A stretch of DNA of 64,000 bases, from contig JASGJH010000001.1 in assembly GCA_047601445.1 (NCBI GenBank), positions 7,008,001 to 7,072,000 of the forward strand. Direction: 5' to 3'. The notes below the pieces were generated by a model, which worked only from the letters and a program-made list of their open reading frames with translations, had not been told where the DNA came from and did no database searches. The stretch's first letter is position 1. Each line of letters begins with the position of its first letter. The stretch is from Myxococcales bacterium. Lineage in GTDB: Bacteria; Myxococcota_A; Polyangia; Polyangiales; DASUME01. A program made the translations under genes and the position numbers. Below are positions 13,002-31,135 of the stretch, one piece after another.

Positions 13002-14071
13002 CAGAAGCGCCCGCTGACTTGGGCTCCCACGGAGCCTTGGAAGAGCCATGGGGACAGGTTCGCGCGTGCGCGTTGCTCGGCTTCCTTGGAGCCCTTGAGT
13101 CGCCACCACAAGAACGTCGCGAGCCCGCCCGCCGCGAGCGCACCGCCCACCGAGACGAGGATCGTGGCGTTGCGCGCGTAGTCTCGGGCTTCCAGGCGGT
13201 CGGCCCGGCCGTCGGGAGTGCACTGGTTGCCCACGCAATTGACGTCGGACACGTGATTGGAGTGCACGGCGCGCAACGTGTAAAGAAAGCTCGCGCTGAG
13301 CGCCACGCCGCCCGCGCTCATCGCGCTGATGGCGACCCATTCCACCGGCGAGCGGGCGGCCGGGCCGTGTTCCGAGCGGCTCATTTCGGGCACACGAGCC
13401 ACGCTGACCTTGGGTGCCTTGCGTGGTGTCGAGCTTGGCGGGGCAGGGCTCGCGGCTTGGGGAGCGGCTTCGGGCGGGAGCGCGGGGATACTCACGAGCT
13501 GGCTGTCGCCCTGCCCCGAGAGCACGAGCTGCGTGGTCCATTCTTGTTTGCCGACGGCTTTGGCGCGCAACCTGTGGGCACCGCCGTCCAAGTAGAGGCG
13601 CTTGCCCAACTGGCCTTGTTCCAGAGGCAGGTCATCGAGTTCCACGAGGACCTGGCTATCGCTGGGCGCGGACACGATGACACTCGATACGCGAGCCTCG
13701 AGGTCGGCCTCCTTCTGCGCGGCAGCCGCCTCGCGGTCGCGGCGCCCCTCCGCGGCTGCGCGGGCTTTGACCTCGCGATACGTGGAGAGCGCGCTCGCGA
13801 GCCTACCGGCGCGCTCGTAGCAGACGGCCAAGGCGAGGAGACATCCCGTCGCAGGCTCGAGCCGAAAGCTCTCTGAGAAGAGCGGACAGGCACGCTCGTA
13901 GTCTTCCTGTGCGAGTCGATCCTTACCACTCTGAAAGAGCTGCTCCGCGGTCGGGTCTTCGGCACGCGCGCGCCGCGGGCGTGCCGTGATCGTGACGATC
14001 AGCGTGAGCAGACACAGCACCATCATTACGAAGAGGTGCCAGCGCGGCATCGCTCGCGTGCTCCGGATCAT
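13001..14071 (-). CDS. Secreted TPR + PEGA-like protein with hydrophobic hairpin and C-terminal beta-strand
   Basis: AEQLFQSG...ACPLFSESFRLEPATGCLLALAVCYERAGRLASA. Ends ...GSVGAQVSGRF. ATGA overlap with the upstream gene. Confidence 0.82.
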   Translation of the reverse strand: MIRSTRAMPRWHLFVMMVLCLLTLIVTITARPRRARAEDPTAEQLFQSGKDRLAQEDYERACPLFSESFRLEPATGCLLALAVCYERAGRLASALSTYREVKARAAAEGRRDREAAAAQKEADLEARVSSVIVSAPSDSQVLVELDDLPLEQGQLGKRLYLDGGAHRLRAKAVGKQEWTTQLVLSGQGDSQLVSIPALPPEAAPQAASPAPPSSTPRKAPKVSVARVPEMSRSEHGPAARSPVEWVAISAMSAGGVALSASFLYTLRAVHSNHVSDVNCVGNQCTPDGRADRLEARDYARNATILVSVGGALAAGGLATFLWWRLKGSKEAEQRARANLSPWLFQGSVGAQVSGRF

Positions 14072-15789
14072 TCGCGTGTCTCGAAAAGGTTCGCGCCGAC
14101 GTCGCTCGCGGGGGGAGTGACCTCGGGTTGGGAAGACCGCGTTGCTTCGGGAGGGTCCGCTTCGCCGGACAGCGCCGCAGCATGAGCTCGGCGGTGCCGA
14201 CGCGGGGCCTCGTCGAGTCCGCTGGAGTGTTCGTCCAGCGCGGGTACTTCCTGGCGTCGATGATGCTTGGGTGGAGGAAGAGCGGAATCTGGTGGAGGCG
14301 CGTTCGCCACCGTGCCGACCGGGAGCTGCGCCAGCGCGGGTACGACTTTTGGCTCGGCCGTGGGCAGTTCCTTGGCGACCGCACCAATCGCTGCGGCAGG
14401 CTGTGCCTGGGCGACCACCGGCAATGCGGAGAGAGTTGGCTCGACGGGACGCGCGCTGAAGCCTCGCACGGCGAGTCCGCCCAGTACACCGAGCGTCACG
14501 GCCGAAACCAGCAGCCACTTGGAGTCTCGCTTGACCTCGGCGGCCCGCCCCGGTGCCAGGCTCGGAATCGGCTCACTGCGGAGCGGCTGATAGGCCCGCG
14601 CTGCCTGCGTCGCGGCGAGCTTGAGGGGCGGAGGCGTGGAGGGCTGGGCCTGCGCGGTGACGTTGTGTTCGACGGCGGCCTGGCTGACCTTGGGGCCGCT
14701 GCCCACCTCGACAGCCGCGGACTCCAGCTCCGCGGTAGTCCCATCGTCTTCGCGAAGCGCTGCGTGCTCCGCGGTCGGTTCGTCCGCGAGCTCCTCGACC
14801 CAACTCGCTTCCGCCGCTGCGACCTTCTCCGGCGGCACCGGCTTCGGGCGCTCCGACTCGGGATTCCGTTCACGTGGCGCGCGCGCCGCGGTCAGCGCGA
14901 ACGCCGCCAGTGGATTTCCTTTGGGTGGCGTCGACTCATGCTTGGCTTCGAGTGCCTCGTGGGTGACGTGCGCTGCGTCTTGTTCGAGTTTGCGGCCGAG
15001 CCAGGAGCGCAGCCGCTGGGCACGCTTGGAGGCCGCTTCGAGCCCTTGTTGACGTTGCCGAGCCTCTCCTTCTCGGACCACGCGCTCCTGCGCGACTCGC
15101 CACGGGCGATACCTGCGGGCGAGCTCACGAACGGACTCGACGCGTCCGTCGAGCACGCCCAGGTTGATGTCCGCCGGATTCTCGGCCCAGTGGTTGCGCA
15201 GCCACCAGCAATTGCTGCTGGCATCGTGCCAAATCAGATGGCCATCCTTGAGCACCTGGAAGGGCGTCGCGATCGCTCCACGAAAGCTGTAGCGCTCCTG
15301 GCCGCTTGCCCCCGTCCTCCACAGGGCAGGCGTGGCGAAGTCGGAGACCACGACGTCGTTGACGAGGTACGCATCACGCTCGGAGCAAGGCGAGCAGACC
15401 TCGATGATGAAGTCCACCAGCCCTTGATCGGAGCGAGGAGAATAGGCCGAGATGGTCCGTTGTCCGAATGGATTGACCAGCAGCTCGAGGCAAACTCGGC
15501 TCACCGCCAGCGACCAATCTGGTTTGAGTTCTACCTGGGCGTATGGCTGACCGTTCTCATCGAGGTGGATGCCTGCCCCATGTCCGAGCGAGGCTTGGGT
15601 GATCAGCACGGGCCAGTAGCCCACGGGCACGTCGTCGAGGCGCGGAAACGGGTCGACGGTGGCGCTGAGGGACCAAAGCGGCGCCAGGTCTCGGACCACC
15701 TGCTTCTGTATCGCCGCACTCACCCGTGCAAGATCCGATAAGTCTACGCCGTCCGCTTCGGGCACCAGGGCGATGTGTTGGGTGTTCAT
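14068..15789 (-). CDS. Bitopic membrane protein: degenerate HExxE metalloprotease-like N-terminal domain, Pro/Ala linker, TM, Pro-rich tail
   Basis: AAIQKQVVRDLAPLW, GIH...GQPYA, WSLAVSRVCLELLVNP, EVCSPC, V.VSDF.TP. TM WLLVSAVTLGVLGGLAV. Confidence 0.7.
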   Translation of the reverse strand: MNTQHIALVPEADGVDLSDLARVSAAIQKQVVRDLAPLWSLSATVDPFPRLDDVPVGYWPVLITQASLGHGAGIHLDENGQPYAQVELKPDWSLAVSRVCLELLVNPFGQRTISAYSPRSDQGLVDFIIEVCSPCSERDAYLVNDVVVSDFATPALWRTGASGQERYSFRGAIATPFQVLKDGHLIWHDASSNCWWLRNHWAENPADINLGVLDGRVESVRELARRYRPWRVAQERVVREGEARQRQQGLEAASKRAQRLRSWLGRKLEQDAAHVTHEALEAKHESTPPKGNPLAAFALTAARAPRERNPESERPKPVPPEKVAAAEASWVEELADEPTAEHAALREDDGTTAELESAAVEVGSGPKVSQAAVEHNVTAQAQPSTPPPLKLAATQAARAYQPLRSEPIPSLAPGRAAEVKRDSKWLLVSAVTLGVLGGLAVRGFSARPVEPTLSALPVVAQAQPAAAIGAVAKELPTAEPKVVPALAQLPVGTVANAPPPDSALPPPKHHRRQEVPALDEHSSGLDEAPRRHRRAHAAALSGEADPPEATRSSQPEVTPPASDVGANLFETRE

Positions 15790-15986: not shown

Positions 15987-16958
15987 TCAGCGCACACAGC
16001 GGACTCGATGCACGCTGTCGGCCGCGAACCAGGCGTCTGATCCATGTCCAAAGTCCACCGCCCAATGGAAATCGGTGAAGCGCGCCAGCGACGTCGCAGA
16101 CCAGTAGTAAGCTGACGGTTCACCCGCGAAAGCTTCCTGGTCGAGGGCCGGGCCGGCACGCGTCTCGTCTACCAGCGAATGCAGCTCCTTGAGCGTGGGC
16201 AGTCGCCAGAGCTCCTCCGCAGTAGCCAGACCCATGCAGTACGCCTCTGCGCCCGCAGCGTCGTAGGTGGAGTCGGGAGACTTCGTCTGCCAGACCAGGC
16301 GTGTTCCCGCATCACGAACGCCGTTCGATAGGGCCTTGAAGGGCGACCCTTGCGCTTGTGAGCCCCCGCGCACGCAGCGAACCGGGTGGAGTTCATCGAT
16401 GGACACCGGAAGTACGTTCGTGCCCGAGAATCCAAAGTCCACCAGCCAGGCTGTGCCTGCACGACCTGCCAGGGGCGACGCGGACCAGTAGCGGTCTGCG
16501 ACGAAGCCAGGGAACGCCTCGAGCTCGTCGCTCTCGCTGTTCTGATCGAGAGCTAGCAACGACACGAGCTCGATGCGTGCAGGGAGCCGAAACCCTCCGC
16601 CATCCACGGTGAGCGCCGCACAATAGGTCTCCGCATCCAGCCAGCTGCGTGGCGTGGAATCGGTGCCGGCTTGCCACTCGAGCTTGGTCACGTCGTCCCG
16701 GACGACGCCCTCCACCGGGCTGCTATAGGCACGTGGGTAGGAGCCCTCCGGGGTGCCGTCCGGCATGGGCCAGCGCGCCCAGGCGTAGGGCGAGGGCTGG
16801 AGTGCGAGCCCGCCGTCGGCGCTGGGGCCCTCGGCGGTCGCATGAATCAGCACGCCGGCTTCATGCTCGGGTGGATCCGGCAAGTCGATGCCGAGCATCG
16901 CGCTGCACGCGCTGGAGGCGAGCGAGATCAGCGTGATCGGGCCCCGTGCAGCACGCAT
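15987..16958 (-). CDS. Lipoprotein with two DUF1566 domains (paralog of 12006-13001)
   Basis: ASSA-C lipobox, W.MP, VVRDDVTKLEWQ, FRLPARIELVSL, two VRCVR ends. Confidence 0.88.
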   Translation of the reverse strand: MRAARGPITLISLASSACSAMLGIDLPDPPEHEAGVLIHATAEGPSADGGLALQPSPYAWARWPMPDGTPEGSYPRAYSSPVEGVVRDDVTKLEWQAGTDSTPRSWLDAETYCAALTVDGGGFRLPARIELVSLLALDQNSESDELEAFPGFVADRYWSASPLAGRAGTAWLVDFGFSGTNVLPVSIDELHPVRCVRGGSQAQGSPFKALSNGVRDAGTRLVWQTKSPDSTYDAAGAEAYCMGLATAEELWRLPTLKELHSLVDETRAGPALDQEAFAGEPSAYYWSATSLARFTDFHWAVDFGHGSDAWFAADSVHRVRCVR

Positions 16959-16977
16959 GGGTGAGGCCTGGGAGCGT

Positions 16978-19900
16978 CTACTCGAGGTTTTCACATTTGT
17001 CATAGGCGGGCTGCGGCTGCTTGCCGACCAGGGCGTCGCGCGAGAGGCCATCGAGATAGAGAAACACGGCAAAGCCGGCGTTCATCGCGCCGCGCAGGGT
17101 CCAGGTCTCGAAGTCGTCTTGCTTGATTCGGTTCTCCTCGGTGAGCCAGGTGCTGGGACAAATGGGCAGCGGGTTGTCGGGAGAGCGTGCGGCTTGCACT
17201 TCTTCCACGCGCGGCACGTTCTTGGGATCGGTCGGCCACATCACGCACCATGGACCCAAATTGCCAGTGGCCACACCGGTCACGCTGTTCGCGCTCACGA
17301 TGCCGCGCTCGTCGCCGACCAAGGCGTACGCGGGGTACGTTTCCGGGCGGTACCACGACGATCGTGCGTCCAGGTTGGACGGCGCGCTCTTGATCTTGAA
17401 ATCGCCATTGTCGTAGTAGATTGCGCGCACCGGCGGTCGAGTGCCCCAGGCGCACAGCTTTTGCCAGACTTCGGCGTCTGCGTTCGTCCCGATCAGTGCC
17501 GAGCCCGTGTAGTCCGTGCGCCCGCTCTGCACGTTGAAGATGGGCGCGCTGTTCAGGTTGTAGCCCAACGACTGCCCGCACAGGCTCTGCGCGATGGCCA
17601 ACATGTTGGCGGAGCCTGCCTTGGCCGGATAGTCACGCGACACCCCGAGCACGCTCACTGCGCCCACTACGTCGAGGATCGCGTTGGGGATCTGGCGCTG
17701 CGTGCCTCCGAGGCCCATCCAGGCCACGTAGCGGGCGGTCCAGTCGTCGTAGGTCAGACCCTCGGTGAGATACTTGGACAACCCGAACACGCGCTTGCGG
17801 TTTTCGCCGGGTGCCGAGGAAGGGCCGAGGATGCCCTCCTTGAAGTTGGCCACGCGGGCTTCGCCTCCGGTGAGCGACATCAAGGTGTCGGCCTGGCGCC
17901 CTCGCGAGTCGTACTTGGCGCCGTGGCAGTTGACGCAAATCTCATTGAAGACCATGGCGCCAGGGGACTGGTAGTACAGCGGATCGGTGGGCCTCGGAGT
18001 GGGGGTCTTCTTGTCGAACCACCACGGGCGCGTCTCGGGTGTCAGCGACGAGACGCGAGGGATGTCCTGATAGGTGCAGTCGTCCTTGGGCTGCCAGAGC
18101 CCGAACGGCACGGGGGTGGTCGCGAACGCGCGGAAGCCGTTGGTCAGGCGCGCCTGCTTGAGCATGCTCACCACCTTCTTCTGCTGCGGATCCGAGCCGA
18201 CTTCGCCGTCCACCAACACCGAGGCCCAATCCGTGCGCCGCGGATACCACTCGCCTGGCGTCTCGGTAATGTCCGTTAGCACCCAGTGCGCGTGATCGGG
18301 CACGCCGTCGTTCTTGAGGGAGGCGAACAGGCCGTCGACGCTCTGGTCGGAGTCGAGCTCCGCCTGCTTGCTCATGGAGGGCAGAGAGGAGTGATCGCCC
18401 GGCGTGAGCTGAGTACCGCCGACGTTCGGATCCAGGATATCGCTGGTATCGGGGCAATACTTGGTCGCGCGATCGGGGGACAGGAACAACAAGCTCAGCT
18501 CTGGGTTCTGCACCGCGAAGGTCTGGCGGTCACCCGGCGCGGTCTTGTCGATGCCGACTGCACCGCCCACGTGATAGGCAGTCAATCGTTGATCGGCGCC
18601 CGCGAGGGCATCCTGATAGCCGGGATCGCCAGGCTTGACCTCGGAATACAGCGTTTGACCTTCGGCGAGTCCGCCGGTGGACCAGTCCATTTTGAAGCAG
18701 ATCCCCGTGCAGCCCTCCGCGTCGTTCATGCGCGCCGGAATGCTGATCATCCAGTTGCCGAAGATCTCGGGCACACGGCAGTCGAAGCCCACCGAGTTCA
18801 TCGGCATGTGCGGGAACAACGCGTAGTCCTCTGCATAGGTGAAAGGACTCTCCACGTTGCGATAGATCAGGCTGCGCCAGGGCGCGACCATGTAGTAGCC
18901 ATTGAAGGCCCCGTTGCTGCCCGGGTAGCCCATCCACTTCTGCGCGTAAATCGAGCTGTTCGGCTGCTCCTCGTCGAACAGCCAGGGCACGATGTACGGA
19001 ATCTGCGATTCCTGCTTCTCGCCGCGCTTGATGCGCGGGCTCGTGCGCTCCAGAGGGAACTGGAAGACACCGCCGCTCTGTTCGTTCGGAAAGAAATCGA
19101 GTAAGTCCTTCAGCTCCGGGTTCTGCGTGGTGGGAAAGCCACGGGGGTTGTGGCAATGGGCGCAGTTCCCAAGCATGTAGCCCTGGGCCTTGAGCTCGTG
19201 GTCGTTGCGCGGCGGGCGCGCGCCCTGGGATTGTTCGAGCGTCTTGACCTCGTCAGGGCTCGAAAGGCCAGTGATGGTACCGTATTCGATCAGACGCTCG
19301 AGTTGCTCGAGCTCGTCTTCGCTGGTGTCCTCGTAGGTCCCGCCTTCGCCAGTAGCGCGCCGACGCATTTGCAGCGGTGTGAGCCCGAGCAGGAAGCTTC
19401 GGTTGTGGCTGCCCATGTGGCACTGGATACAGCGCTCGCGGCCGGGGATCGCGTAGTTCCGCATGGCGCCTGCTCTGAACAGCGCTGCCACTCTGTTGGA
19501 GGGCTCCTTGGCCACCACCTCGGCGGCTTTGACCTCGTTGGACACGTAGCTCAGCATGACGTCGCGAAACGGCTTGCCGTCGCGTAGCGCCCCCGTGACC
19601 AAGATGGCCTCGGTCTCCTCTTCGTTCCACGCATAGGTTCCGAATAGGGAGCGCGTCTCGTGGGACCCGTCCGGCTCGTCGGGCCCATCGGCGCGCACTA
19701 CGATCAGGCGGGTCTCGATCTTCTTGTAGCGCGCGTTTCCGTTCGCATCGATGACCTCTTTCATGAAGGTCTTGTACACGCGCGTGTTATCCGGGACGTC
19801 GAACTCCTGGGTCTTGGCGTCGAACGCCAGGGACTCGCCGCGCGGCAAGCGCAGATGGCGCATCTTGCGTGCGTTGTCCGAGAAGAGCGGGTAAGCGGGC

Positions 19901-20715
19901 GCGTACGAAAGCACGCCCTGGTGCGCCAGGACCTCGGAGTCGTAGCTGACGAGGTCCGTCTGATCCAAGCGACTGGGAAGCGCCGTGGCGGATGCGAAGA
20001 AGGCATCCTTGGCGTCCATGGAGCTCTCGTCGGTGGCCAGCATGGCCCGGTTCGGGAGGCAGCTGCCGATGTTGGTGAGGCTCTGGGCCACGCTCTTGCG
20101 GAGCACGTAGGTATTCGCGGGGCCTGTCGTGCTGTCGTCTCCCACGTACAAGAGATCACCGGGCGAACCGGCCTTGAACCACAGCTCGAGCAGTTGCGCG
20201 AGCTCGACCAAGGGGTCGGTCTCCGCACGTTCGGACCAGGGCTTGGCGTTCGACTGTCCTGGCGGCGGCATGTACTTGTTGGGATCCTCGGAGCGGATGC
20301 GCTCGAGGATGAGGGCCTGGCGTGAGCTGGTCGCCTCGGCGAACTCGCCTACGTCCTTGACCTGAAAATCTCCGCGGATGGTCTCCACGTGGCAGGCACC
20401 ACAAGCACCCTTGAAGAGGCCGAACAAGTTGCTCGTGAGCACCGCGCGCTGGCCGGGCTTGAGGTTCAGCACACTCACCACGTCGCGCGCAGGGACAGGC
20501 TCGGCGGACTGCACGCTGGCGCACTTGGCGACCTCGGGTCCGGGATCGGGGACCTCGGACTCGCCGTCATCCTCTCCGCCGACGCCGGCATCGAACACGC
20601 ATAGCTTGGCGTGCGCAGCGGGACGCTCGCGCGAACAACCCGCGGTCCCGGCCAGGCTCCACGAGAGCAAGAGCATCAGCGACACACGACGGAAGAGCAT
20701 TCGTGACATGACCAT
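16978..20715 (-). CDS. Large tetraheme c-type cytochrome lipoprotein with SO2930/HNE_0200-like diheme core
   Basis: TAG-C lipobox. CXXCH at 20403-20389 (CGACH), 19431-19417 (CIQCH), 19164-19150 (CAHCH) and 17937-17923 (CVNCH). Also PLFSDNARK.R, YKTF, IETRLIV, YAWN. Confidence 0.85.
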   Translation of the reverse strand: MVMSRMLFRRVSLMLLLSWSLAGTAGCSRERPAAHAKLCVFDAGVGGEDDGESEVPDPGPEVAKCASVQSAEPVPARDVVSVLNLKPGQRAVLTSNLFGLFKGACGACHVETIRGDFQVKDVGEFAEATSSRQALILERIRSEDPNKYMPPPGQSNAKPWSERAETDPLVELAQLLELWFKAGSPGDLLYVGDDSTTGPANTYVLRKSVAQSLTNIGSCLPNRAMLATDESSMDAKDAFFASATALPSRLDQTDLVSYDSEVLAHQGVLSYAPAYPLFSDNARKMRHLRLPRGESLAFDAKTQEFDVPDNTRVYKTFMKEVIDANGNARYKKIETRLIVVRADGPDEPDGSHETRSLFGTYAWNEEETEAILVTGALRDGKPFRDVMLSYVSNEVKAAEVVAKEPSNRVAALFRAGAMRNYAIPGRERCIQCHMGSHNRSFLLGLTPLQMRRRATGEGGTYEDTSEDELEQLERLIEYGTITGLSSPDEVKTLEQSQGARPPRNDHELKAQGYMLGNCAHCHNPRGFPTTQNPELKDLLDFFPNEQSGGVFQFPLERTSPRIKRGEKQESQIPYIVPWLFDEEQPNSSIYAQKWMGYPGSNGAFNGYYMVAPWRSLIYRNVESPFTYAEDYALFPHMPMNSVGFDCRVPEIFGNWMISIPARMNDAEGCTGICFKMDWSTGGLAEGQTLYSEVKPGDPGYQDALAGADQRLTAYHVGGAVGIDKTAPGDRQTFAVQNPELSLLFLSPDRATKYCPDTSDILDPNVGGTQLTPGDHSSLPSMSKQAELDSDQSVDGLFASLKNDGVPDHAHWVLTDITETPGEWYPRRTDWASVLVDGEVGSDPQQKKVVSMLKQARLTNGFRAFATTPVPFGLWQPKDDCTYQDIPRVSSLTPETRPWWFDKKTPTPRPTDPLYYQSPGAMVFNEICVNCHGAKYDSRGRQADTLMSLTGGEARVANFKEGILGPSSAPGENRKRVFGLSKYLTEGLTYDDWTARYVAWMGLGGTQRQIPNAILDVVGAVSVLGVSRDYPAKAGSANMLAIAQSLCGQSLGYNLNSAPIFNVQSGRTDYTGSALIGTNADAEVWQKLCAWGTRPPVRAIYYDNGDFKIKSAPSNLDARSSWYRPETYPAYALVGDERGIVSANSVTGVATGNLGPWCVMWPTDPKNVPRVEEVQAARSPDNPLPICPSTWLTEENRIKQDDFETWTLRGAMNAGFAVFLYLDGLSRDALVGKQPQPAYDKCENLE

Positions 20716-20807
20716 GGGATGCACGCGACCCCTGGCGTCGCTTGCCGCGACGTCAGGGGCGCTTTGGATGGACGTTTTCGAGCCCGGCGACATCCGCGAA
20801 GGAGCGG

Positions 20808-22706
20808 CTACTTTGCGAAGTAAGTGGCGTTGTCGAGCGAGATCTTGGGCGCGCTCGGGCTGTTGGCGTCGTTGCTGCAAGTCACGGCGTAGGGATCGAC
20901 GCCGGGCGCCAGTGCCAAGAAGCCGCGCTTCTCCACGGCCGCGTTCGCACGATCGGGACGACGCGAGTCCGTGTAGATGGCCTTCACGAGGTTCCACTGG
21001 GCATCGACCTGCTGCTGGGGCGTGATGGTCCCGGAGAGGGGGGCTCCCTGGTACGTGTACACGCTGGAGCTGCCGGTGCGGGATTCCGCGGACTCACCGA
21101 GGCTGTTGAAGCCCTTGAGGCTGCTCACGAACACGTAGCGCGAGAGGGCGTAGCTGCGGTCGCGGATCGTGGCGTAGTCGCTGGCGATGGGATCGTTGTT
21201 GAGGCTGAACACGCGCGGCTGGGTGACGCCCGCGGCAACCGTGTCCTTGTACACGGGCAACGCGCCGAAGCCGATGCTGTTGAGGTCGTTGGGTACGGCC
21301 GTGGTCAAGCACGCGACCTGCAGGTCCGAGGCAAGGGTCTGCGTGCAGCGCGTGGTGAACGGACGATTGCCCACGTTGGAGAGGCCGCGGTTGGTGGTGG
21401 CCAGGCGATAGAACGCGAGGGCCGGCGCGGTGGCGCTCGGCTTGATGTTGCCCGTGGCCGGATCGCGCAGAAACAGGTTGTGAACGCGCGGATCCTGCCG
21501 GCGGAACGCGGCGGGGACGCCGACGTTGCAGCAGCGCGACGCGGTGGGCAGGCCGTTGAAGGCGGTGTTGGTCTTGGCGCCCCACGCGATGGGCGTGTTG
21601 TCGCGGGTGCCGTCATCGCCGTTGAGCACGCCAAAGGCGGGCGCTGTAGAGGCCTGCGGAACCTGGCAGCCCGAGCCGAACTTCACGTTCCAGTTGAAGC
21701 GACGAGCTTCGGGAGAGTTCGGGTTCTCGAAGTGTGCGGGGACGGGGTAGCGGCAGTCGCAGCGCGTGAGATTGGAGAGCGTCGCGGGAGCTCCCGCGGC
21801 CAGGCCCGCGTATGCCGAGGCGGGCACGCCGAGGCTGGCCGACGAGGGGTCGATGGAGCTCGGACCGCCAGAGCACGCTTGGCCCTGGGCACCGGAGAAC
21901 TTTCCGAACGCAGCCGTGGAGGTACCGTTGGCGCCCGTGTAGAGATCGGGCAGGTTGTTGGAGAAGGTGGGCACCACGATGGGCAGCACCAGACCGAGCG
22001 TGCCGTCGGCCTCGGCGACCTGGTCGTTGGCGTCGGCGTAGCGACGGATCGGGTCGAGATCCTGGGCGTCGGTGCCGTTGCACCACTTCTGGTTGGTGCC
22101 GGGAATGCCTAGCAGGGCGATGAAGAGCTTGGCCGTCGCGCTCGCTTCACCGCGGCGATAGATGTGGCGGATCTGGGTGTTGGCGGGGACGCTCGAGCTG
22201 GCGAACAGGCTGCCGTAGTCAGCCGCCAAAGCGCGGCGCGCAGCGCTGTTGCAGTCCTGAGTTTGGTCGCGCAGATCATAGCCCGCGTAGAGCAGCGAGA
22301 GCGCGTTCTGCCAGGTGCCGTAGTTCGTGCCGATGGTGGGGTTGCCCTCCGGGAAGCGGTTCGGATGACCCACGTTCAAAATGCCATCGATGGCGAGCAC
22401 GATGTCTTGGGCATTGGGGTAGGTGCCGCACAGGCTGTCGCCGAGCTGCGCTGTGAAGAAGGCGATCACCTGGTTGCTGGTGGTGCTCTTCAAGGCCGTC
22501 TCGCCCGGGGTCTGACCGCCGCCCGCGTAGTCGAGGAACGAGCCGAGGTCCGCGTTGGCCGACAGCGCCGGATCCGCGAGGAACGCGGGCCGCACGACGG
22601 GCTCCCACGAGTCCGAGCCGGCCAGCCTGAGGAGCTGCGCGTCGGCCGCGAGCGGCACCGCGCTCAGCGCGGTCACCACGGAGATGAGTGATAGTCCTTT
22701 GTTCAT
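20808..22706 (-). CDS. Secreted divergent PstS/PBP-like substrate-binding protein with Cys-rich insertions
   Basis: Signal peptide; LRLAGSDS, YAGGG...GE, LAIDGI, YRRGEASATAKLF, SIGF, YALSRYVFV. Confidence 0.65.
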   Translation of the reverse strand: MNKGLSLISVVTALSAVPLAADAQLLRLAGSDSWEPVVRPAFLADPALSANADLGSFLDYAGGGQTPGETALKSTTSNQVIAFFTAQLGDSLCGTYPNAQDIVLAIDGILNVGHPNRFPEGNPTIGTNYGTWQNALSLLYAGYDLRDQTQDCNSAARRALAADYGSLFASSSVPANTQIRHIYRRGEASATAKLFIALLGIPGTNQKWCNGTDAQDLDPIRRYADANDQVAEADGTLGLVLPIVVPTFSNNLPDLYTGANGTSTAAFGKFSGAQGQACSGGPSSIDPSSASLGVPASAYAGLAAGAPATLSNLTRCDCRYPVPAHFENPNSPEARRFNWNVKFGSGCQVPQASTAPAFGVLNGDDGTRDNTPIAWGAKTNTAFNGLPTASRCCNVGVPAAFRRQDPRVHNLFLRDPATGNIKPSATAPALAFYRLATTNRGLSNVGNRPFTTRCTQTLASDLQVACLTTAVPNDLNSIGFGALPVYKDTVAAGVTQPRVFSLNNDPIASDYATIRDRSYALSRYVFVSSLKGFNSLGESAESRTGSSSVYTYQGAPLSGTITPQQQVDAQWNLVKAIYTDSRRPDRANAAVEKRGFLALAPGVDPYAVTCSNDANSPSAPKISLDNATYFAK

Positions 22707-22755
22707 TGCATTCCTACTCTCTGTTGAGACGTTTCCTTCGGATTGAACTCAGCGC

Positions 22756-23724
22756 CTACGGCGTCGCCACGAGCGGTGCGCGTCGCAGGCGACGAAGCGT
22801 GAACACCAGCAGCAAGAGCGCGCCGAGCCCGCCCACCGCGAGCCAGCGTGTGAGCGGCTGCTCGCCCAGCTCGTACAGGGCGCGTTGCCAGGGCGAGCTA
22901 ACCTCGGCGGTGACGCGCGCCATGACCTCGACTGCGTCTGGCTTCATGGAGCTATGCCGAGCACGCTCGACGATCTGCGCCGCCCCCGCATAGTCCTGCT
23001 CCTGCATGGCCAGCGTCCACTCGTAGCCGAGGGTCTTGGCCTGGTTGGGGGCCGTGCCGCGCAGCGTTTCGAGGCAAGCACGCAGGCGCCCCGTATCGCG
23101 CACGCGAACGCCGACGTCGCAACGCAGCTGCGCCACGAGCGTCGGATCCACCTTCGCCTGCTCGAGATGCTTCAGCACCGCATCGAGGTCGTTCAGGCGC
23201 GAGGTCGGCACGGCTCCCGGCTGAACCAACGCCAGGCGCACGTAGCGCATGTAGTCGTCCACCACCACGCCGGGCTTGGTCAAGGCCATGGCGCAGGCCG
23301 AAAGACCGCGCGCCTTGTCGTCGCCCTCTTCGTAGGCCTGGCAGAGCTTCGAGAAGCCTGCCGCGACGCCAGGGACCGCCAGTGTGATCGCACGCAGATA
23401 CTTGGCGGCTTGCGCATGATCTCCGCGTTGACTCGCGCGGTCGGAGCGCTCTGCAAGTTCCATCAGATAGTTCGCGAAATCGATCGGGGCCGCGTTGCGC
23501 TCGGCCTCGCTCGGCACGGCGATCTCGGCCGCGCCGTCGTCGATGGGGAAACCGGTCACGAACAGCGAGTCGCCCATCCGCCGGGCCTCTTCGGGAGACT
23601 CCGTGGGCAGGATCTGGGCGTTTTGGGCGCCCGACGAACTCGCTGACCACGCCTGGCAGAGCACGAGTAGCGGCAACAGAAGAGACCGCCAACGACGAAC
23701 ATCGATCGAACTGCGCTTGAACAT
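22756..23724 (-). CDS. Exported TPR-like protein with C-terminal TM anchor
   Basis: Signal peptide, helical repeats (GDHAQAAKYLRA...FSKLCQAYE), hydrophobic C-terminus followed by RRLRR. Confidence 0.7.
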   Translation of the reverse strand: MFKRSSIDVRRWRSLLLPLLVLCQAWSASSSGAQNAQILPTESPEEARRMGDSLFVTGFPIDDGAAEIAVPSEAERNAAPIDFANYLMELAERSDRASQRGDHAQAAKYLRAITLAVPGVAAGFSKLCQAYEEGDDKARGLSACAMALTKPGVVVDDYMRYVRLALVQPGAVPTSRLNDLDAVLKHLEQAKVDPTLVAQLRCDVGVRVRDTGRLRACLETLRGTAPNQAKTLGYEWTLAMQEQDYAGAAQIVERARHSSMKPDAVEVMARVTAEVSSPWQRALYELGEQPLTRWLAVGGLGALLLLVFTLRRLRRAPLVATP

Positions 23725-23740
23725 CGTGACATCACCTCAT

Positions 23741-24508
23741 TCAGAAGAAGCACTGCGTGGGGCAGAAGATTCCATCACCTTCGATCACCATCTCGGCGAG
23801 CCCGATCGGGTAGGTCGGATCCAAAAAGCGGTTCTGCACTTCTTTGATGCCGTCCATTTCGGCCTCCGAGGCCGCGGTGATCTCGCGCACACAGGCGCCA
23901 GCCGCGTCTGCGAGCGGTGTCGTCAAGCACGTGGTGGACTCCACGCCGGGGCCGCAGAGGCAATCGGTGAGGTACACCGTTCCGCTCTCGTCGGGTTTGG
24001 TGCATCCAGTGCGCCAAATGCACTTGAGCAGGTCAGTGCAGAGCACCGAGCGCTTGCGCCCGGCTCCGATGCCCATTTCAGCCTTGCCTTCCATGGCGAG
24101 GCACGCCGCGCGCGCGTGATAGTAGGCGCTCTCGGGATTGATCGTCTCTTCGCAGGACGCGCACTCGAGGGGATCGCCGAACGGTCCCTTGGTGGGGTCG
24201 TTCCCTGCGTCCGATCCGGCGTCGTCCTCGGACTGCGACGCGTCGATAGCAGAAAGCCACGATCCACCGGTGCCGCCGTCGAAGAACTCGTCGGAGACCA
24301 CGTCGGCATCCACCTCGGGGCTGGCGGCATCGCCCGCATCCGGCTTGCCCGCGTCCAGTCCGCCCGCATCGCTCGGCGGGAAGACACAGAGGGCTTGATT
24401 CGGACCTGCCATGGGTTCTGCACCACAGCCCAGGGCGAGCAGAGCCAGCCCGCTGCCGAGGCGCGCGACGCGAAGCGTGAAGAGGTGCCGGTTTCCATGA
24501 AGGGTCAT
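23741..24508 (-). CDS. Cys-rich lipoprotein (paralogous C-terminal domain with 24622-26016)
   Basis: LALG-C lipobox, DAG linker, C..CE...C...C..TGC...DC.CG.GVE.TTC...G.C...NRF.DPTY.IG. Confidence 0.8.
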   Translation of the reverse strand: MTLHGNRHLFTLRVARLGSGLALLALGCGAEPMAGPNQALCVFPPSDAGGLDAGKPDAGDAASPEVDADVVSDEFFDGGTGGSWLSAIDASQSEDDAGSDAGNDPTKGPFGDPLECASCEETINPESAYYHARAACLAMEGKAEMGIGAGRKRSVLCTDLLKCIWRTGCTKPDESGTVYLTDCLCGPGVESTTCLTTPLADAAGACVREITAASEAEMDGIKEVQNRFLDPTYPIGLAEMVIEGDGIFCPTQCFF

Positions 24509-24621
24509 CGGGAACAGAGGTGCCAAGCGGTGTTGGAGCTTCTCGCAAGGGGCCTTCCGGGGAAGGAAGGTCGCTCGCGAGAAGGCGCGACGCCATAGAT
24601 GACGTCGCGCTCAGGTATCGC

Positions 24622-26016
24622 TCAGGGCGCCAAGCAGACGTCGACGCACGAGAACTGGTCGCAACCTTCGATCACGGAGTCCGCTGCGCCGATGGCGTAG
24701 GTCGGATCGGTGAAGCGGTTGTTGATGTCGGTGATGCTCTCGGACTCCGCACCCGCGGCGACCTGCTGCTTGCAGGGACCGGTGGCGGCGGCGTAGGTCG
24801 AGCCGAAGCAGGTGGTAGGTTCGACGCCGATGCCGCAGAAGCAGTCGGACACGAAGATGTTGCCGCCGTTGTCCGGCGCTGCGCAACCCGAGGTGTGCAC
24901 GCAATCCAGGATCGCCTTGAAGATCTCGGCGCGTGGCTTGCCCGAATAGGAGTTGCCCGCGATGGCCGTACCGGAGCCCGTGAGCGCGAGGCCAGCGGCG
25001 TAGCTGTCCGGGCAGCTGGGTTCGCCGTTGTGTTGCTGCGTTTCGCAGGCGGTGCAAGCGGCGAGCGGATCGGGCGGATTGCCGGTGGTGGTTCCAGTGG
25101 TGCCCGTCGTGGTGCCGGTGGTTCCGGTCGTGTCCGTCGTGGTTCCAGTGGTGCCCGTCGTGGTGCCGGTGGTTCCGGTCGTGTCCGTCGTGGTTCCAGT
25201 GGTGCCCGTCGTGGTGCCGGTGGTTCCGGTGGTCGTTCCGGTGGTTCCAGTGGTCGTTCCGGTGGTTCCAGTGGTCGTTCCGGTGGTTCCGCCCGCCGTG
25301 GTCACCGTAATGGTGAAGGGATAGGGGTCGCTCGTCGTGTCGCCGTCCGACACCACCAAGGTCACCGTCGTGGTCCCGGTGGCCGTGCCCGTGAAGGTCG
25401 CGGTCGGGTAGCCCGTGGTCACATCGCCGCCTGCGCTGGAGGTCCAGGTGTAGGTCAGCGCGCCGGGCTGGTTGTCGGGATCGTTCGCGGTGGCGACTAG
25501 CTGTGTGGTGCCGCCGAGGACGACGCTCGGCTTCAACGTCACGATGGACGAGATGACCGGCGCCACGTTGGCGTCACCGTTGACCAGCAGGGAGCCGCCC
25601 GTCACCGCCGGACCGCGGAAGATCAGGTGTACCGAGACCGTGGTCTGGTTGCGTGCGGTGATGCTGAAGGTGGCCGTGCCGGCGCCCTTCGTGACCCCGT
25701 CGGTGGCCGTCGCCGTGAGGTTCAAGGTGTAGTTCTGGCCCGCCGGGATGGGGCTGATCACGTGGGAGAACGTGTTGCCCGTGCCGGCCACGGAAAACGT
25801 CCCGGTGAGCGGCGCGGCGAGGCCACCGCCGGTGATGGTATAGGCGACGCTGTCGACGGTGACGTTGCCCGTGACGAGCCGGAGCTCGGCGCCGCCCACC
25901 TCGTGCTGAGCCTGCTCGGCGCTTGCATCTTCGCTGCTGCAGCCAACCAGCCCGACGCTGCCGTACGCTGCGGCGAGCGAGAAGATGATTGCACTGCGGA
26001 TCGATCTATTCTTCAC
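24622..26016 (-). CDS. Lipoprotein with Ig-like domains, Gly/Thr repeat linker and Cys-rich C-terminal domain
   Basis: AAGGAGG RBS before GTG 26016; LVG-C lipobox; ATANDPD...LTYTWTS...VTLVVSDGD Ig/PKD-like domain. Confidence 0.85.
25081..25290. repeat. Tandem repeat encoding a (GTTTGTT)n linker
   Basis: Repeated GTGGT/GTCGT/TCCGGT units; protein TTGTTTGTTGTTT... Confidence 0.9.
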
Positions 26017-26142
26017 AAGTATCCTCCTTGCGAGCGTGCGCATCCGCTTGCCAGCGCACTCCAACCCGTTGCGCTGGGCGCATACGGACTCGAGTGCGTT
26101 GGTGTTGGCCGTCGCTCTTCGTCTTGCTGCGCCGAGCGCTAC

Positions 26143-26157
26143 GCAACCTGTGTGCCA
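26143..26157 (-). promoter_or_regulatory. sigma54 -24/-12 promoter of the lipoprotein-PstS-like-cytochrome operon
   Basis: Minus strand TGGCAC-ACAGG-TTGC, an exact match to the TGGCAC-N5-TTGC consensus. Confidence 0.8.
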
Positions 26158-26221
26158 TGGGAAGAGATGTGAGAATTGCCGTGAAAATGGCCTCGCTGTC
26201 GCCGAGGTCGGCGTCGCAGTC

Positions 26222-26298
26222 TGCTCATGAATGAGCAAGCTCTGCTGCTGACTGCTGATTGGTGAGCAATGCGATGTCCGATTGCAGACGCACTGACA
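26222..26298. promoter_or_regulatory. Three phased upstream activator sites TGC-N10-(G/A)CA
   Basis: TGCTCATGAATGAGCA (26222), TGCTGATTGGTGAGCA (26253), TGCAGACGCACTGACA (26283); spacing 31 and 30 bp. Confidence 0.65.
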
Positions 26299-26438
26299 AT
26301 CGCTCGCGTCGTCGAGCGATCTGCAGTCCCGGATCACGCGCGTACGTGCTGACGTCACGCCGTTAACGGCCCGAGCGCCGCGCTCGCTGCTGGAGCGTGC
26401 GTGGACTCGAACCTCGATGGTGTGCGCCGAAGGCCGCT

Positions 26439-27570
26439 CTACTTGCCGTCTTCCTCTGCACTCGAACGACGAGTGGTGCCGGCAATTTCGCCCTGTTCGA
26501 TCAAGCGCGCGCGAACCACGTTGCGACTCAAGCCCAACAAGCGCGATGTCTGGAGCTGATTCCTTCCGCAGTACTCGTGGGCCACGCTCACCAAGCGACG
26601 CTCGATGTAGTGATGGAGGTGTTCGATGTTCTTCTCGAACAGACGGTGCAGGGCCTCTTCGAGCAGCGCGTCGGCGTCGTTGCGCTCGATGAGATTCCGA
26701 CCCCTGCGCAGCTTCCAGCGGCTTCACGCTGCGAGGCGGCGCGGCTCTCCTGAGGTTCAGTTGTGGCTCGTCGATGCTGTCTCCATCACGCACGAGGACC
26801 GCGTGATGGATGACGTTCTCGAGCTCGCGGATGTTGCCTGGCCAGCTGTGCTCCAGGAGCGCGCAGCAGGCCGCGGGAGCGAGCGTGAGTGGACCTGCAC
26901 CCACGGCTTCTCCATAGAGATTCAGAAAGTGTTCGGCCAGCGGGAGAATGTCCCGGGGACGCTCACGCAGGGGCGGAACCACGACGCTGGCGACGCTGAG
27001 TCGATAAAAGAGGTCCGAACGGAAGCGCCCCGCCGCCACGGCCTCTTCCAGGTTGACGTTGGTCGCCGTGATCAACCGGAAGTCCACCGCCACGGTGGTG
27101 CTCGATCCGAGCCGCACGATTTCGCGTTCCTGCAGCGCGCGCAGCAGCTTTACCTGCGCGGCCATGGAGAGGTCGCCCACTTCGTCGAGAAAGAGCGTCC
27201 CGCCGCGGGCGGCCTCGAACCAGCCCGTCTTGGCGCTCGTCGCGCCGGTGAAGGCCCCACGCTCGTGACCAAACAGCTCACTCTCCACCAGGGACTCGGT
27301 CAGCGCACCGCAGTTCACCGCTACGAAGGGGCCGCCGCTGCGGTTGCTCAGGCGATGGACGAGCCGCGCCGCCAGCTCCTTCCCGGTACCGGTCTCTCCA
27401 CACAGCATCACGCTGGCGTTGCTCGGCGCCACCAGCTCCAGGCGCCGCAGCAGCGCAGCCGATCGTTCGTCGGCAAACAGCAGGGCTCGCGCGCGTGCGT
27501 TTTCACCCGTGGCAGGAGCCGGGACGGTGCGGGTCTGAGGGTCCGCATCGTCGCGGAATTTGACGGGCAT
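26439..27570 (-). pseudogene. SfnR-like sigma54-dependent activator without sensor domain; net +1 frameshift near 26700 separates the HTH (real lesion or sequencing error)
   Basis: [45 protein letters not shown]. The HTH (...[28 protein letters not shown]...) continues in another frame to TAG at 26441-26439. Confidence 0.85.
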
Positions 27571-27612
27571 GAGAGTTCGCATTCCAGACGGGGCCGGCAC
27601 GGACGCGCGCTA

Positions 27613-27628
27613 TGCAAGAGCGGAACCA
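27613..27628 (-). promoter_or_regulatory. Possible sigma54 promoter of the activator gene
   Basis: TGGTTC-CGCTC-TTGCA with correct spacing; a TGC-N10-GCA site lies at 27710-27725. Confidence 0.4.
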
Positions 27629-27780
27629 TCGTCTGCTGTCAGGTGCTCGACCGTAGGAAAGGAGCAGAAACTTCGATCGAAAGGATCCGGTTGGAGAAGA
27701 CATGGGCCGTGCCGGGGCAAGGGCAGACCTCTTCGCTTGTGGACAGTCAAGGGAAGCCCGTGACGGGCCAGGGGGGGGCC

Positions 27781-28800
27781 CTAGCGCAGCTCACCTGGCC
27801 GCCCGTGCTCGACCACGGGGGAAGACGGCTGAATCAGGTTTTCGTTGCGCGTTCTAAATTCGCGTCTCTTGCCGAACTGCTGAATGAACTTGGCGCACTC
27901 ACGGACATCGTCTGCAGTCACGTGCGCTGCCCAGCCGACCAGCATGATCCACTCGAACAGGTAGATGTTCATGGCGTACTCGATGCCCAGGTGAAGCATC
28001 AAGATGGCGAGCAGGGCCAGGCGTCGTGTCTCCCGAAACCACACGAGCAACGGAGCCAGGATCTCGAGCAGCAATGAACCCCAGGTGGTCAGCCGGGAGA
28101 ACAGCAAGGACTCACGCAGGAAGTCCGGGATGGGCCCGTGCATCGCGAAGTCGTCGAGGTGGAGGATGAAGTACATCGCGGTCCCCTCGCGCCACATCGT
28201 TCCGCTCAGCTTCTCCACGCCAGCCGACCACAGCAGGGCAGCCATTTGAACCTGCACCAGACGCAAGCACCAGCCATCCACTTCCGTGGCCACTGCAAGG
28301 CCGCGCCTGCGCCGCACGAACGCGTCCAGGGACCAGACCTCCGACGAGCGCATGAAGATGGTCAAGAACAACAGAATACGGAAGATCTTGTCGCCTCCGT
28401 CGAGGATCATCGCGTTGCGAAAGTCGAAGCTCACTGCCCACACGAACACGCAGATCGCTTGCAGTCGAGTCGCCGCGCCCAGCGCCAGTAAGACTCCCTG
28501 TCCGAGCGCGATGGCCCAACACGTCCAAACCACGTTCGGCGTGCTCGGCAGCCAGTCCAGCAGACTCAAGGTCCCTGCGGGGGCAAACAGCTTGCGCTGG
28601 GTTAGCGGGAGCACTCCGCCGTCGGTCCACCACATGTCCACGTGGGGGATGGCGAGCAGAAGGTCGAGCACGAAGAGGCTAGCGAGAGCGATGCGATGAA
28701 AGGCGAGCCGGCGTGCGTCCACCGAGGCGTGTAGCCAGCGGTCGAGGGCCCTTCCGAGCTCCATCAGGGCCGGGAGATCGTCCTGTGCACGAGCGGTCAC
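27781..28800 (-). CDS. HTTM domain (vitamin K-dependent gamma-carboxylase-like / SdpB-like) membrane protein
   Basis: FHRIALA, WTDGGVLP, RNAMILDGGD, WSLDA, LRLVQVQM..L.SAG.EKL.G..W.EGTA, LHLGIEYAMNIYLFEWIM. GTGA overlap. Confidence 0.88.
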   Translation of the reverse strand: MTARAQDDLPALMELGRALDRWLHASVDARRLAFHRIALASLFVLDLLLAIPHVDMWWTDGGVLPLTQRKLFAPAGTLSLLDWLPSTPNVVWTCWAIALGQGVLLALGAATRLQAICVFVWAVSFDFRNAMILDGGDKIFRILLFLTIFMRSSEVWSLDAFVRRRRGLAVATEVDGWCLRLVQVQMAALLWSAGVEKLSGTMWREGTAMYFILHLDDFAMHGPIPDFLRESLLFSRLTTWGSLLLEILAPLLVWFRETRRLALLAILMLHLGIEYAMNIYLFEWIMLVGWAAHVTADDVRECAKFIQQFGKRREFRTRNENLIQPSSPVVEHGRPGELR

Positions 28801-29381
28801 GGCAGGACCTCCACGTGAAAGAGATACTGATGAGGAAATACGGTTTGCCCGGGGATCGCGCGCCCGAAGTAGTTCGGTGCGCCCGGATTCGGGACGTCCC
28901 ACCAGTGACGGACCAGCTCCACCCGGGCCGGCACCAAACCCCGCTCGGGTCGTGCTAGCCGGGAGGCTGCGAAGCGAGCCAGCGCTGGCCACAACACACG
29001 CGAATCGTCGCGACGCAGCGCGTCCCACCACTTGGCGTGACGCCCCTGGAGGATTTCATCGCCCGCGCTTTGCTGCTCCCAGTCCGGACTCTTCCAGCTT
29101 CCGCTCTCGCCGTTGCGGAAGGTGACCTTGGCTTCGATCCAGGCGTTGGTGCGCTTGGGGTCGGGAGCAAAAAGCTTCCAGTCACCTTGCCAGAGTCCCA
29201 GTGGGTAGAGGACTTGGCCGCATAGCTGGCGCAAGCTCGTGCGCGCGGGGGAGTCACCGGGCAGAGCATCCTGCAGCAGCGCGCCCATGAGCAGCACGGC
29301 AAAGCCGTTGATTAGCCAACGCTCAAAGCGTGCCTTGGCGCCGCGCGCGAGCGAGAGATTCGCGAGTTCTGGGGTCGACAC
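28797..29381 (-). CDS. HTTM partner protein (DUF5819 / SdpA-like)
   Basis: N-terminal TM, GLWQGDWKLFAPDP motif, coupled to the HTTM gene. Confidence 0.7.
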   Translation of the reverse strand: MSTPELANLSLARGAKARFERWLINGFAVLLMGALLQDALPGDSPARTSLRQLCGQVLYPLGLWQGDWKLFAPDPKRTNAWIEAKVTFRNGESGSWKSPDWEQQSAGDEILQGRHAKWWDALRRDDSRVLWPALARFAASRLARPERGLVPARVELVRHWWDVPNPGAPNYFGRAIPGQTVFPHQYLFHVEVLP

Positions 29382-29394
29382 GCGCCCAGCGCTG

Positions 29395-29410
29395 AGCAAG
29401 CAACATGCCA
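29395..29410 (-). promoter_or_regulatory. sigma54 -24/-12 promoter of the DUF5819-like/HTTM pair
   Basis: Minus strand TGGCAT-GTTGC-TTGCT. Confidence 0.65.
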
Positions 29411-31065: not shown

Positions 31066-31135
31066 TCCGCGCGAATCAGCAAAAATGCAGACCAAAGTGC
31101 TTGACCCGAACCGAGCCCCCCTGCATGGCAGGGTG

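Follow-up and report, generated by a model that had tools for sequence, protein, structure and literature searches.

The question posed by the genes at positions 15,987 to 27,630 of the DNA studied here is what a cell could gain from a row of exported proteins in which a large multiheme cytochrome stands beside a binding protein of the PstS type. The window, a stretch of 64,000 nucleotides (positions 7,008,001 to 7,072,000 of contig JASGJH010000001.1, assembly GCA_047601445.1), comes from a Myxococcales bacterium whose genome is one contig of 9.5 Mb. A first-pass annotation of the window had proposed an undescribed envelope system for redox chemistry or scavenging, controlled by a sensor-less sigma-54 activator resembling SfnR and possibly concerned with sulfur. 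Comparisons of sequences and predicted structures suggest a sulfur-starvation copy of a conserved module, which would build a surface coat that catches sulfur oxyanions and in which the cytochrome would act as an oxidative maturase; as a whole this reading is given somewhat less than an even chance.

Inspection of the open reading frames (ORFs) confirmed six co-oriented, closely spaced minus-strand genes, separated by 113, 16, 49, 98 and 19 bp, and their N-termini read as a lipobox in four, a cleavable signal peptide in one and a signal peptide with a C-terminal membrane helix in one. The first (24622-26016) encodes a lipoprotein, recognised by its lipobox, in which a Thr/Gly stalk separates an Ig-like region from a C-terminal domain with 12 Cys, and the second (23741-24508) a lipoprotein with a single 12-Cys domain, 40% identical to the Cys domain of the first. 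There follow an exported TPR-like protein with a C-terminal membrane helix (TPR-TM, 22756-23724; its TPR matches are all sub-threshold), a secreted PstS-fold protein with large inserts (20808-22706), a tetraheme lipoprotein cytochrome of 1243 residues with four CxxCH motifs (16978-20709) and an Lcl_C/DUF1566 lipoprotein (15987-16958; PF07603, E 8e-43). The Ig-Cys lipoprotein is likely the anchor, and the TPR-TM protein likely an assembly factor. An alignment of 69 of the 12-Cys domains had neither a PDB match at E<=5 nor a shared Pfam family, and no fusion of this domain to the cytochrome was found. As first annotated, ABC permease and ATPase families had no match among the 14 window proteins scanned with Pfam; linked PstC, PstA or PstB was seen neither among these nor among 63 neighbour proteins scanned, and two separate pst operons sit elsewhere in the genome.

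Whether these genes belong together was judged from their distribution. An initial genome scan with a single protein as query gave no match and a scan with an alignment succeeded. With the alignment, 290 genomic and 254 metagenomic stretches were picked up as related, and the top 79 and 80 loci, respectively, went forward; once redundancy was removed, these 159 loci came to 130, 44 of them with at least 7 kb on either side, and the module profiles were built from the same loci. Cytochrome homologues numbered 314 at E<=1e-20 among 7995 candidates scored, and those that are named belong to Polyangiales, Polyangiaceae and Polyangia. A PstS-like protein was present in 43 of the 44 loci, as was the 12-Cys domain (confirmed with a domain profile), with the Ig region in 39, the TPR-TM family in 37 and a membrane-extended signal peptidase I in 34 (TIGR02227, above cut-off). 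Less regular were a barrel-like CxxCH protein, the heme-barrel (21/44), a sensor-less sigma-54 activator different from that of the window (16/44) and small cytochromes (13/44). Across 301 genomes of the class the cytochrome was found in 21, the PstS-like protein in 21 and both in 20, counts that are not independent because 19 of each main gene fall in one family of 46 sampled. The PstS-like gene, the cytochrome, the 12-Cys lipoproteins and the TPR-TM gene travel together, and it is virtually certain that a conserved, co-inherited module of uncultured Polyangia is real, which bears out the earlier proposal of an envelope system. The Lcl_C/DUF1566 gene, which had been counted among its parts, occurs in 0 of the 130 loci and is a local addition. 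The module is apparently undescribed, since no account of it, or of a P460 fold in the SO2930-type proteins discussed below, was found in the literature searched, whose coverage leaves out most subscription journals.

The signal peptidase has a multi-helix N-terminal extension, and in 64 of 94 loci (L058:13602-14741 and 63 others) its gene comes immediately after that of the cytochrome. Neither it nor the heme-barrel was found in the source genome by the module profiles, and it stands at the module locus in one of five congeners. By inspection, a link between a Gly-rich signal peptide and the dedicated peptidase is visible but mixed. DsbA-like proteins, PPIases and GT41 recur near the module as maturation helpers. 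A pair of small membrane genes without a Pfam match was also seen at five to six loci (L104:1167-1760, L127:18287-18820, L069, L082, L067), one of the two being exosortase-like by eye (RGCDA motif).

What the module handles is best asked of the PstS-like protein, whose family profile matches PstS structures (best 4omb, E 3e-12) and whose family holds 665 clusters at 50% identity with E<=1e-30. Most members share with the PstS of PstSCAB (TIGR02136 type; 4omb, 4q8r) the Venus-flytrap motifs GSDT, GGGS, SR and RxxxSGT, kept here as GSDT, GGGS, PMSR and RRxDxSGT. They differ from it in being twice as large, in their disulfide-rich inserts, in having no linked permease and often in having a signal peptidase of their own. 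In PBP-1 of C. perfringens phosphate is contacted by Ser11-Thr12-Ser13, Ser41, Ser59, Arg125 and Ser129-Gly130-Thr131 (PMC5381212). With these contacts mapped onto the family by motif, the residues are kept as S in 65, T in 60, S in 59, R in 69 and SGT in 59, 64 and 63 of 69 sequences. The window copy departs from this pattern, reading GSDSW, GGGQ, FFTA (for PMSR) and RRGEASAT, with S33, Q65 and A190 and without SR; Gln and Ala stand where the phosphate-contact Ser and Gly would be. By this mapping the protein is shown to have lost three predicted phosphate-contact positions. The same changes occur in four homologues at 62-75% identity and are thus fixed across five proteins. A single-sequence fold of the window protein reached a predicted local distance difference test (pLDDT) score of 30.

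The composition of the protein is as unusual as its pocket. Its 603 mature residues include 12 Cys and not a single Met, where the family medians (197 sequences) are 28 Cys and 6 Met, and only 4 of 1181 ORFs of 500-800 codons in the genome are free of Met. Its four close homologues have 0, 0, 0 and 1 Met and 12 Cys. Met is likewise absent from the mature Ig-Cys lipoprotein, which has 13 Cys; its paralogue has 5 Met and 40 Cys. The small Cys lipoprotein, the TPR-TM protein and the cytochrome are not sulfur-depleted. Sulfur sparing usually shows itself in proteins poor in Cys and Met. Such a composition has been read in this way elsewhere (PMC8557817). The high Cys content that had seemed hard to reconcile with induction by sulfur starvation is confined to the two small lipoproteins; both the PstS-like and the Ig-Cys protein are depleted in sulfur relative to their relatives, and this removes the paradox.

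The two traits recur together. Gln replaces the serine of GGGS in 11 of 218 family members, ten of which are sulfur-poor while the eleventh (L038) has 0 Met and 20 Cys, and the other 207 show neither trait. In a 222-sequence FastTree the Gln-type members fall in three separate places, namely the group of the window (five members), a second group (five members with 0-2 Cys) and L038, and both groups of five are monophyletic with support 1.0 and lie in different clades. One locus of the second group, L084, also encodes a serine acetyltransferase, a rhodanese and a family 2A encapsulin with its cysteine desulfurase. The encapsulin and cysteine desulfurase of this family are induced by sulfur starvation. 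A further locus (L043) has Ala at the GGGS serine and no Met seen past the leader, and adjoins a family 2A encapsulin too; the other four loci of the second Gln group had no sulfur gene among the neighbours scanned. On account of the Met and Cys composition and of the convergent change of Ser to Gln in the pocket, the link to sulfur drawn earlier is likely right for the window copy, and the operon is probably a sulfur-starvation copy. That the ligand would be a sulfur oxyanion, as the altered pocket hints, is an evenly poised proposition. Some points weigh against this view: Asp32 of the GSD motif is retained, a PhoB-like regulator (below cut-off) adjoins the Gln-type gene of L038, and the tree was midpoint-rooted and carries no formal clade test. 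If the view is right, the repeated replacement of Ser by Gln amounts to an experiment of nature in switching a PstS pocket from phosphate to another anion.

The source genome appears to carry one sulfur-type and one phosphate-type copy. A second module lies at C1:2,591,000-2,605,000, with a PstS-like paralogue at C1:2,596,376. The region C1:2,591,000-2,612,000 holds a tandem pair of Ser-type PstS-like genes along with three Cys lipoproteins, a GT41 gene, a lipoprotein with a TonB receptor, and Pho-type promoter elements. The Pho-type element GT(C/A)AC-N10-TA occurs 8 times around the second module (5 intergenic), 0 times in the window and 384 times genome-wide. Its exact form is absent before both pstS genes, one of which is preceded by similar 11-bp repeats. 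Phytase-like and 5'-nucleotidase-like genes, named by eye, lie near this second copy, which looks phosphate-type.

The PstS-like protein is likely the abundant subunit of the module. The G+C content at third codon positions of its gene exceeds that of the cytochrome gene in 60 of 61 loci, and in relatives the gene has its own promoter, a tandem enhancer and up to several tandem copies. Display of PstS at the cell surface under starvation has a precedent in P. aeruginosa, where it is found on appendages under phosphate limitation (PMC2242829). Among 150 representatives, 12 use the PstS-like domain as an N-terminal carrier for something else (RHS/YD shells, RCC1, Phi_1, FGE-like, propeller and monoheme domains). 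The RHS/YD-repeat, teneurin-like, RCC1, Phi_1, FGE-like and propeller fusions are 960-3400 residues long (P0148, P0229, P0252, P0234, P0244, P0236, P0138), and a C-terminal monoheme cytochrome c is fused to the domain in five of the 150 (P0146, P0177, P0213, P0241, P0259).

Control by an SfnR-like activator, the second element of the earlier proposal, stands in part. The gene directly upstream (26439-27570, minus strand; PF00158, E 3e-66) encodes a sigma-54 activator whose AAA+ domain begins about 35 residues in and which has no N-terminal sensor. Its relatives within the clade adjoin SsuE, SsuD, SfnB, SsuA and cysteine-desulfurase genes. The gene is, however, not intact in this assembly, a frameshift having been missed at first; the frame breaks near a GGGG run at 26704-26701, a homopolymer in a single-contig assembly. 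No stop interrupts the AAA+ frame, which passes the promoter and enters the first lipoprotein as a 992-aa ORF (24622-27600), and the helix-turn-helix (HTH) lies in the next frame. This ORF was rejected as a true fusion because it crosses the promoter and because the HTH lies in another frame. The activator resembles SfnR of Pseudomonas putida and P. aeruginosa as a sensor-less AAA+ protein in a clade with msu/ssu-type genes, and differs in preceding a surface-protein operon and in being frameshifted, the classical neighbours being at an intact paralogue at 7.41 Mb. In Pseudomonas SfnR groups with msu genes (PMC8234197). The intact paralogue (62% identity, C1:7,407,215-7,408,474) adjoins an SsuE reductase, and the true organosulfur regulon is likely the region C1:7,407,215-7,412,042, where the activator and an SsuE free of Cys and Met over the 160 residues counted are joined by a binding protein poor in sulfur. 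Two further SfnR-like activators (L199:571-2721, L200:616-2619) are fused in frame to an SsuA-type sulfonate-binding domain.

The consensus sigma-54 promoter of the operon was confirmed at 26157-26142 (minus strand, TGGCAC-N5-TTGCG); sites of the TGGCAC-N5-TTGC type number 33 among those listed in the 9.5 Mb genome. A possible site for the activator gene itself, TGGT-N7-TTGC, was seen in the sequence at 27614-27628 (minus strand), both being identified by the -24/-12 consensus. Phased enhancer sites had also been claimed, and candidate boxes are indeed present, but they are weakly supported: a pair of boxes 22 bp apart at 26270-26304, like the tandem enhancer of the family, ranks 90th of 9.5 million positions, and a one-mismatch TGCTG-N6-CAGCA palindrome at 26253-26268 ranks 3804 by matrix. 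The enhancer-box matrix was made from 56 boxes upstream of relatives' PstS-like genes, and of 10 other SfnR-like loci 6 carry the palindrome without a mismatch, two of them near-identical orthologues. In relatives a -24/-12-type element lies 33-103 bases before the PstS-like gene in 39 of 63 cases (0.9 in shuffles), a count that is partly circular because the variant pattern was read by eye from the same sequences; the strict consensus matched 3 of the 63. TC(C/T)GA-N-AATCGRA-like boxes, often paired at 20-21 bp, accompany 36 of these 39 promoters.

Several observations speak against control of the operon by this activator. The SfnR-type site in the window is weak, as its rank indicates, and the intact SfnR-like locus of the genome has no perfect copy of the palindrome. 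The operon promoter also resembles the enhancer of a different activator clade, one not found in the genome. The closest orthologue of the frameshifted gene is 69% identical, too far to judge whether the break is an assembly error, and none of 120 listed activators was placed on a contig of the same length as those with the four closest PstS-like homologues. When the genome was scanned for an SfnR regulon, no enrichment appeared (5 of 494 sites, vs 7 and 2 for control spacings). Nor do the data support the module as an SfnR regulon in general, as had been supposed: SfnR-type HTH domains occur in 0 of the 130 loci, which makes this activator local and not core, and most PstS-like members keep phosphate-type pockets. 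Within the class, few genomes (5 of 201) have an SfnR-like activator. A separate palindrome, GTC(T/C)W-N6-WRGAC, recurs before Gln-type PstS-like genes and beside SfnR-like genes in one family (L084:7494, 7592, 14928, 15342, 20660 and 21365; L144; L148; L060; L086; L204; L205), with one chance-level copy in the window. It is presumably an Rrf2-like site and likely a sulfur-responsive repressor site.

The broken activator, together with a pocket that departs from the family consensus, could also mean that the copy is decaying and its binding protein no longer binds. This is very improbable, given that all six reading frames are open, that the pocket changes are fixed in the five proteins noted above and recur in other lineages, and that the break sits at a homopolymer run.

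The remaining question is why such a coat should need a cytochrome. Four CxxCH motifs are kept in 119 of 120 homologues, and a model of residues 59-1243, built from 63 sequences, had pLDDT 89 and a predicted template modelling score (pTM) of 0.88. By VIA-align the heme 1 domain is nearest FoxE (Z 6.8), heme 4 matches class I cytochromes (ActE, Z 6.0), to which type heme 3 is also assigned, and in a wide search residues about 242-451 (19359-19986, minus strand) matched cytochrome P460/c'-beta (6hiu, Z 5.7, root mean square deviation (rmsd) 4.1, 129 of 143 residues aligned). In a second fold search ranks 2-18 were 17 P460/c'-beta entries, the best with Z 5.9, rmsd 4.0 and 128 of 144 residues aligned. 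As these Z-scores are moderate, the match was tested by sequence too. A deeper profile, to which about 30 TIGR03806-type domains had been added, aligned with the P460 profile at an hhalign probability of 86 and E 5e-6. In that alignment NTRVYKTF falls on DGTxxVKE and K313 (codon 19771-19773) on the Lys column of P460, which is invariant in 19 aligned P460-family sequences. Of 120 homologues 98% have K313, and all 30 SO2930-type domains have it too; E332 and R334 are likewise conserved and are invariant, although their strand register against Glu96/97 of P460 is ambiguous by two residues; the CxxCH of the domain is at 427-431. By residue counting, and so as a sequence position only, the column corresponds to Lys106 of 6amg, the P460 of Nitrosomonas AL212. 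That residue is the cross-link residue of the Nitrosomonas protein (Table 2 of PMC11928373).

The heme 2 domain very probably has the P460 fold, and a cross-link between Lys313 and its heme, predicted from the alignment, has a slightly better than even chance of being formed. Against the fold it must be said that a Foldseek search with the model had no match at E<=0.001, that Z-scores below 8 can mirror a common arrangement only, and that the narrow family profile compared poorly with that of P460 (probability 0.8 global, 34 local). An ESM Atlas search returned a cluster of the cytochrome's own kind only, without a P460 row. PF16694 had no match at E<=0.1 in the cytochrome, and the domain is for this reason called P460-like and not a PF16694 member. 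With the known proteins (6hiu, 9hrk, 2je3, 6amg, 7s5o, 7ead) it shares a beta-sheet fold over about 128 of 144 residues, a C-terminal CxxCH and the Lys of the DGTxxVKE column. Those proteins are small monoheme forms, mostly dimers, whereas this domain is embedded in a 1243-residue lipoprotein that adds long inserts and three further hemes; fusion or diheme forms are not mentioned in the parts of PMC11928373 searched.

The nearest named family is SO2930, a diheme cytochrome (TIGR03806), which matches the region of hemes 2 and 3 at E 1e-31 and shares the P-x-x-T-x-x-x-K-x-F and ETR motifs. At 110 bits vs a cut-off of 313 it is a distant relative, and it differs from the window protein in its gene partners and in having two heme domains fewer. 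No function for SO2930 was found in the literature searched, in which it appears in one localisation table (PMC4837345). SO2930-type domains occur in 30 of 61 genomes sampled from the phylum; the source genome has 16 TIGR03806 matches and at least nine other SO2930-type domains, the Lys being kept in all seven examined. The heme 2 result also reassigns the SO2930 family to the P460/c'-beta fold. Heme P460 is otherwise known from a handful of small proteins and from hydroxylamine oxidoreductase. Placing SO2930 in this fold, with an invariant cross-link Lys, would make many unexplained cytochromes testable by their spectrum.

Known P460s oxidise NH2OH (PMC11928373), and with its fold and Lys position the cytochrome could be a hydroxylamine- or NO-handling enzyme that is merely co-regulated with the surface protein. 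We hold this quite improbable: no nitrogen-cycle family was found among the 63 neighbour proteins scanned, co-regulation explains poorly the near one-to-one pairing with a PstS-like gene, and the cross-link alone does not confer hydroxylamine oxidation (PMC11928373). The tight pairing, the sulfur re-tuning of the binding protein and the open P460-type site that is predicted would instead suit direct oxidation, with the PstS-like protein passing its ligand (thiosulfate, sulfite or an organosulfur anion) to heme 2, much as the annotation had imagined a ligand presented to the cytochrome. The residues of the candidate pocket, D278, K282, K313, E332 and R334, are however the same in Gln-type and Ser-type loci, and only a single surface column is common to the Gln-type loci. 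The unchanged pocket suggests that the substrate is probably common to both types and argues against turnover of the bound anion. Phosphate, the likely ligand of most members, is moreover not redox-active under cell conditions, and direct oxidation is improbable.

A comparison with MbnH and MbnP had also been drawn. In both cases a heme enzyme is paired with a secreted binding protein that is a possible target of modification. MbnH is, however, a bCcP/MauG-type diheme protein and MbnP is Trp-rich with a WxW motif (PMC11951088), neither of which was seen in the window module. The likeness does not extend to the enzyme, for which the P460 fold is predicted instead: MauG and CcP families had no match in Pfam, NCBIfam or PDB sequence searches of the cytochrome. 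The bCcP/MauG fold gave one single-domain match (YhjA, Z 4.4) in a whole-model search that tested the parts unevenly, and MauG, MbnH and hydroxylamine oxidoreductase were not among the fold-search listings, which does not exclude them.

Oxidative maturation of the coat by the cytochrome, after the logic of MbnH and MbnP though by other chemistry, is the reading favoured here, as a tentative proposal with the chances rather against it. Under it the neighbouring SfnR-like activator would switch on the sigma-54 promoter when sulfate is scarce. The PstS-like protein, as the abundant subunit, would be anchored outside the cell by the Ig/Cys lipoproteins with the TPR-TM protein assisting, and the coat would concentrate sulfate, thiosulfate or sulfonate for importers encoded elsewhere. 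Heme 2 is predicted to be a five-coordinate P460-type site with the Lys313 cross-link and with Glu332 or Arg334 in the distal pocket, and electrons would leave through the other three hemes, which each have a conserved Met nearby; Met 147, 635, 654, 998 and 1036 are conserved in the family and are candidate sixth ligands of these hemes. The substrate would be common to phosphate- and sulfur-type copies, the simplest being the module's own secreted proteins, joined by disulfides or cross-links, which is the weakest step. The window PstS-like protein has no conserved Trp as a modification target (one Trp column, at 83% of 220 sequences, is Tyr here), one Gln-type lineage has 0-2 Cys, so that disulfide formation in the PstS-like subunit cannot be its universal job, and the monoheme fusions suit electron transfer more than maturation; all three tell against a maturase.

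Redox mobilisation would put the same components to another use. The cytochrome, the heme-barrel and the small cytochromes would exchange electrons with iron minerals or organic matter, freeing adsorbed phosphate or sulfate for the surface binding protein, and one cytochrome would serve both anion types. This is ranked second because of the heme-barrel, the small cytochromes and the PstS-like/monoheme fusions, and the likeness of the heme 1 domain to FoxE agrees with it. In 27 of 32 cases the heme-barrel, which has no Pfam match (examples L043:18796-19989, L086:17581-18735), carries A(Y/F)P-x9/10-CxxCH right behind its signal peptide, a motif that we take to resemble that of Cyc2. Met-ligated hemes are high-potential acceptors, unlike those of a mineral-reducing chain, and this is what the Met residues near three hemes suggest. 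With just four hemes in 1243 residues and a source genome in which the heme-barrel was not found, mobilisation is unlikely.

Extended from the operon to the class, the maturase reading gives a wider picture that is speculative and unlikely to hold in full. Polyangia would make a PstS-fold surface polymer, processed by its own peptidase and oxidatively matured by a multiheme enzyme of the P460 type with a Lys cross-link. At least three times it would have been re-tuned from phosphate to a sulfur oxyanion by a change of Ser to Gln, with stripping of Met and Cys. Fused cargo (RHS shells, cytochromes and lectin-like domains) would be displayed on it, and the SO2930 family as a whole would count as a branch of P460 enzymes that is widespread but has gone unrecognised. 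The module may be one of the chief means by which myxobacteria of the soil acquire phosphorus and sulfur.

Other genes of the window are less closely tied to the module. Directly upstream of the activator, at 27781-29399 on the minus strand, are an HTTM-domain gene (PF05090, E 2e-14; SdpB-like below cut-off) and a DUF5819-like gene, which have their own sigma-54 site (29410-29395) and occur in 0 of the 130 loci. Encoded at 31085-33001 on the plus strand is a 638-residue lipoprotein that contains 25 Cys as well as a zinc-protease-like motif, HELLH; it has neither a paralogue nor a convincing family match. On the other side of the operon a co-oriented trio on the minus strand (12006-15789) encodes a 573-aa protein of no recognised family with 0 mature Met, a TPR protein and a second Lcl_C protein (14068-15789, 13001-14071 and 12006-13004, respectively). 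The first two trio genes occur in 3 and 6 of the 130 non-redundant loci, so the trio is loosely linked to the module, and a paralogous trio lies close to the second module, at C1:2,568,409-2,572,331.

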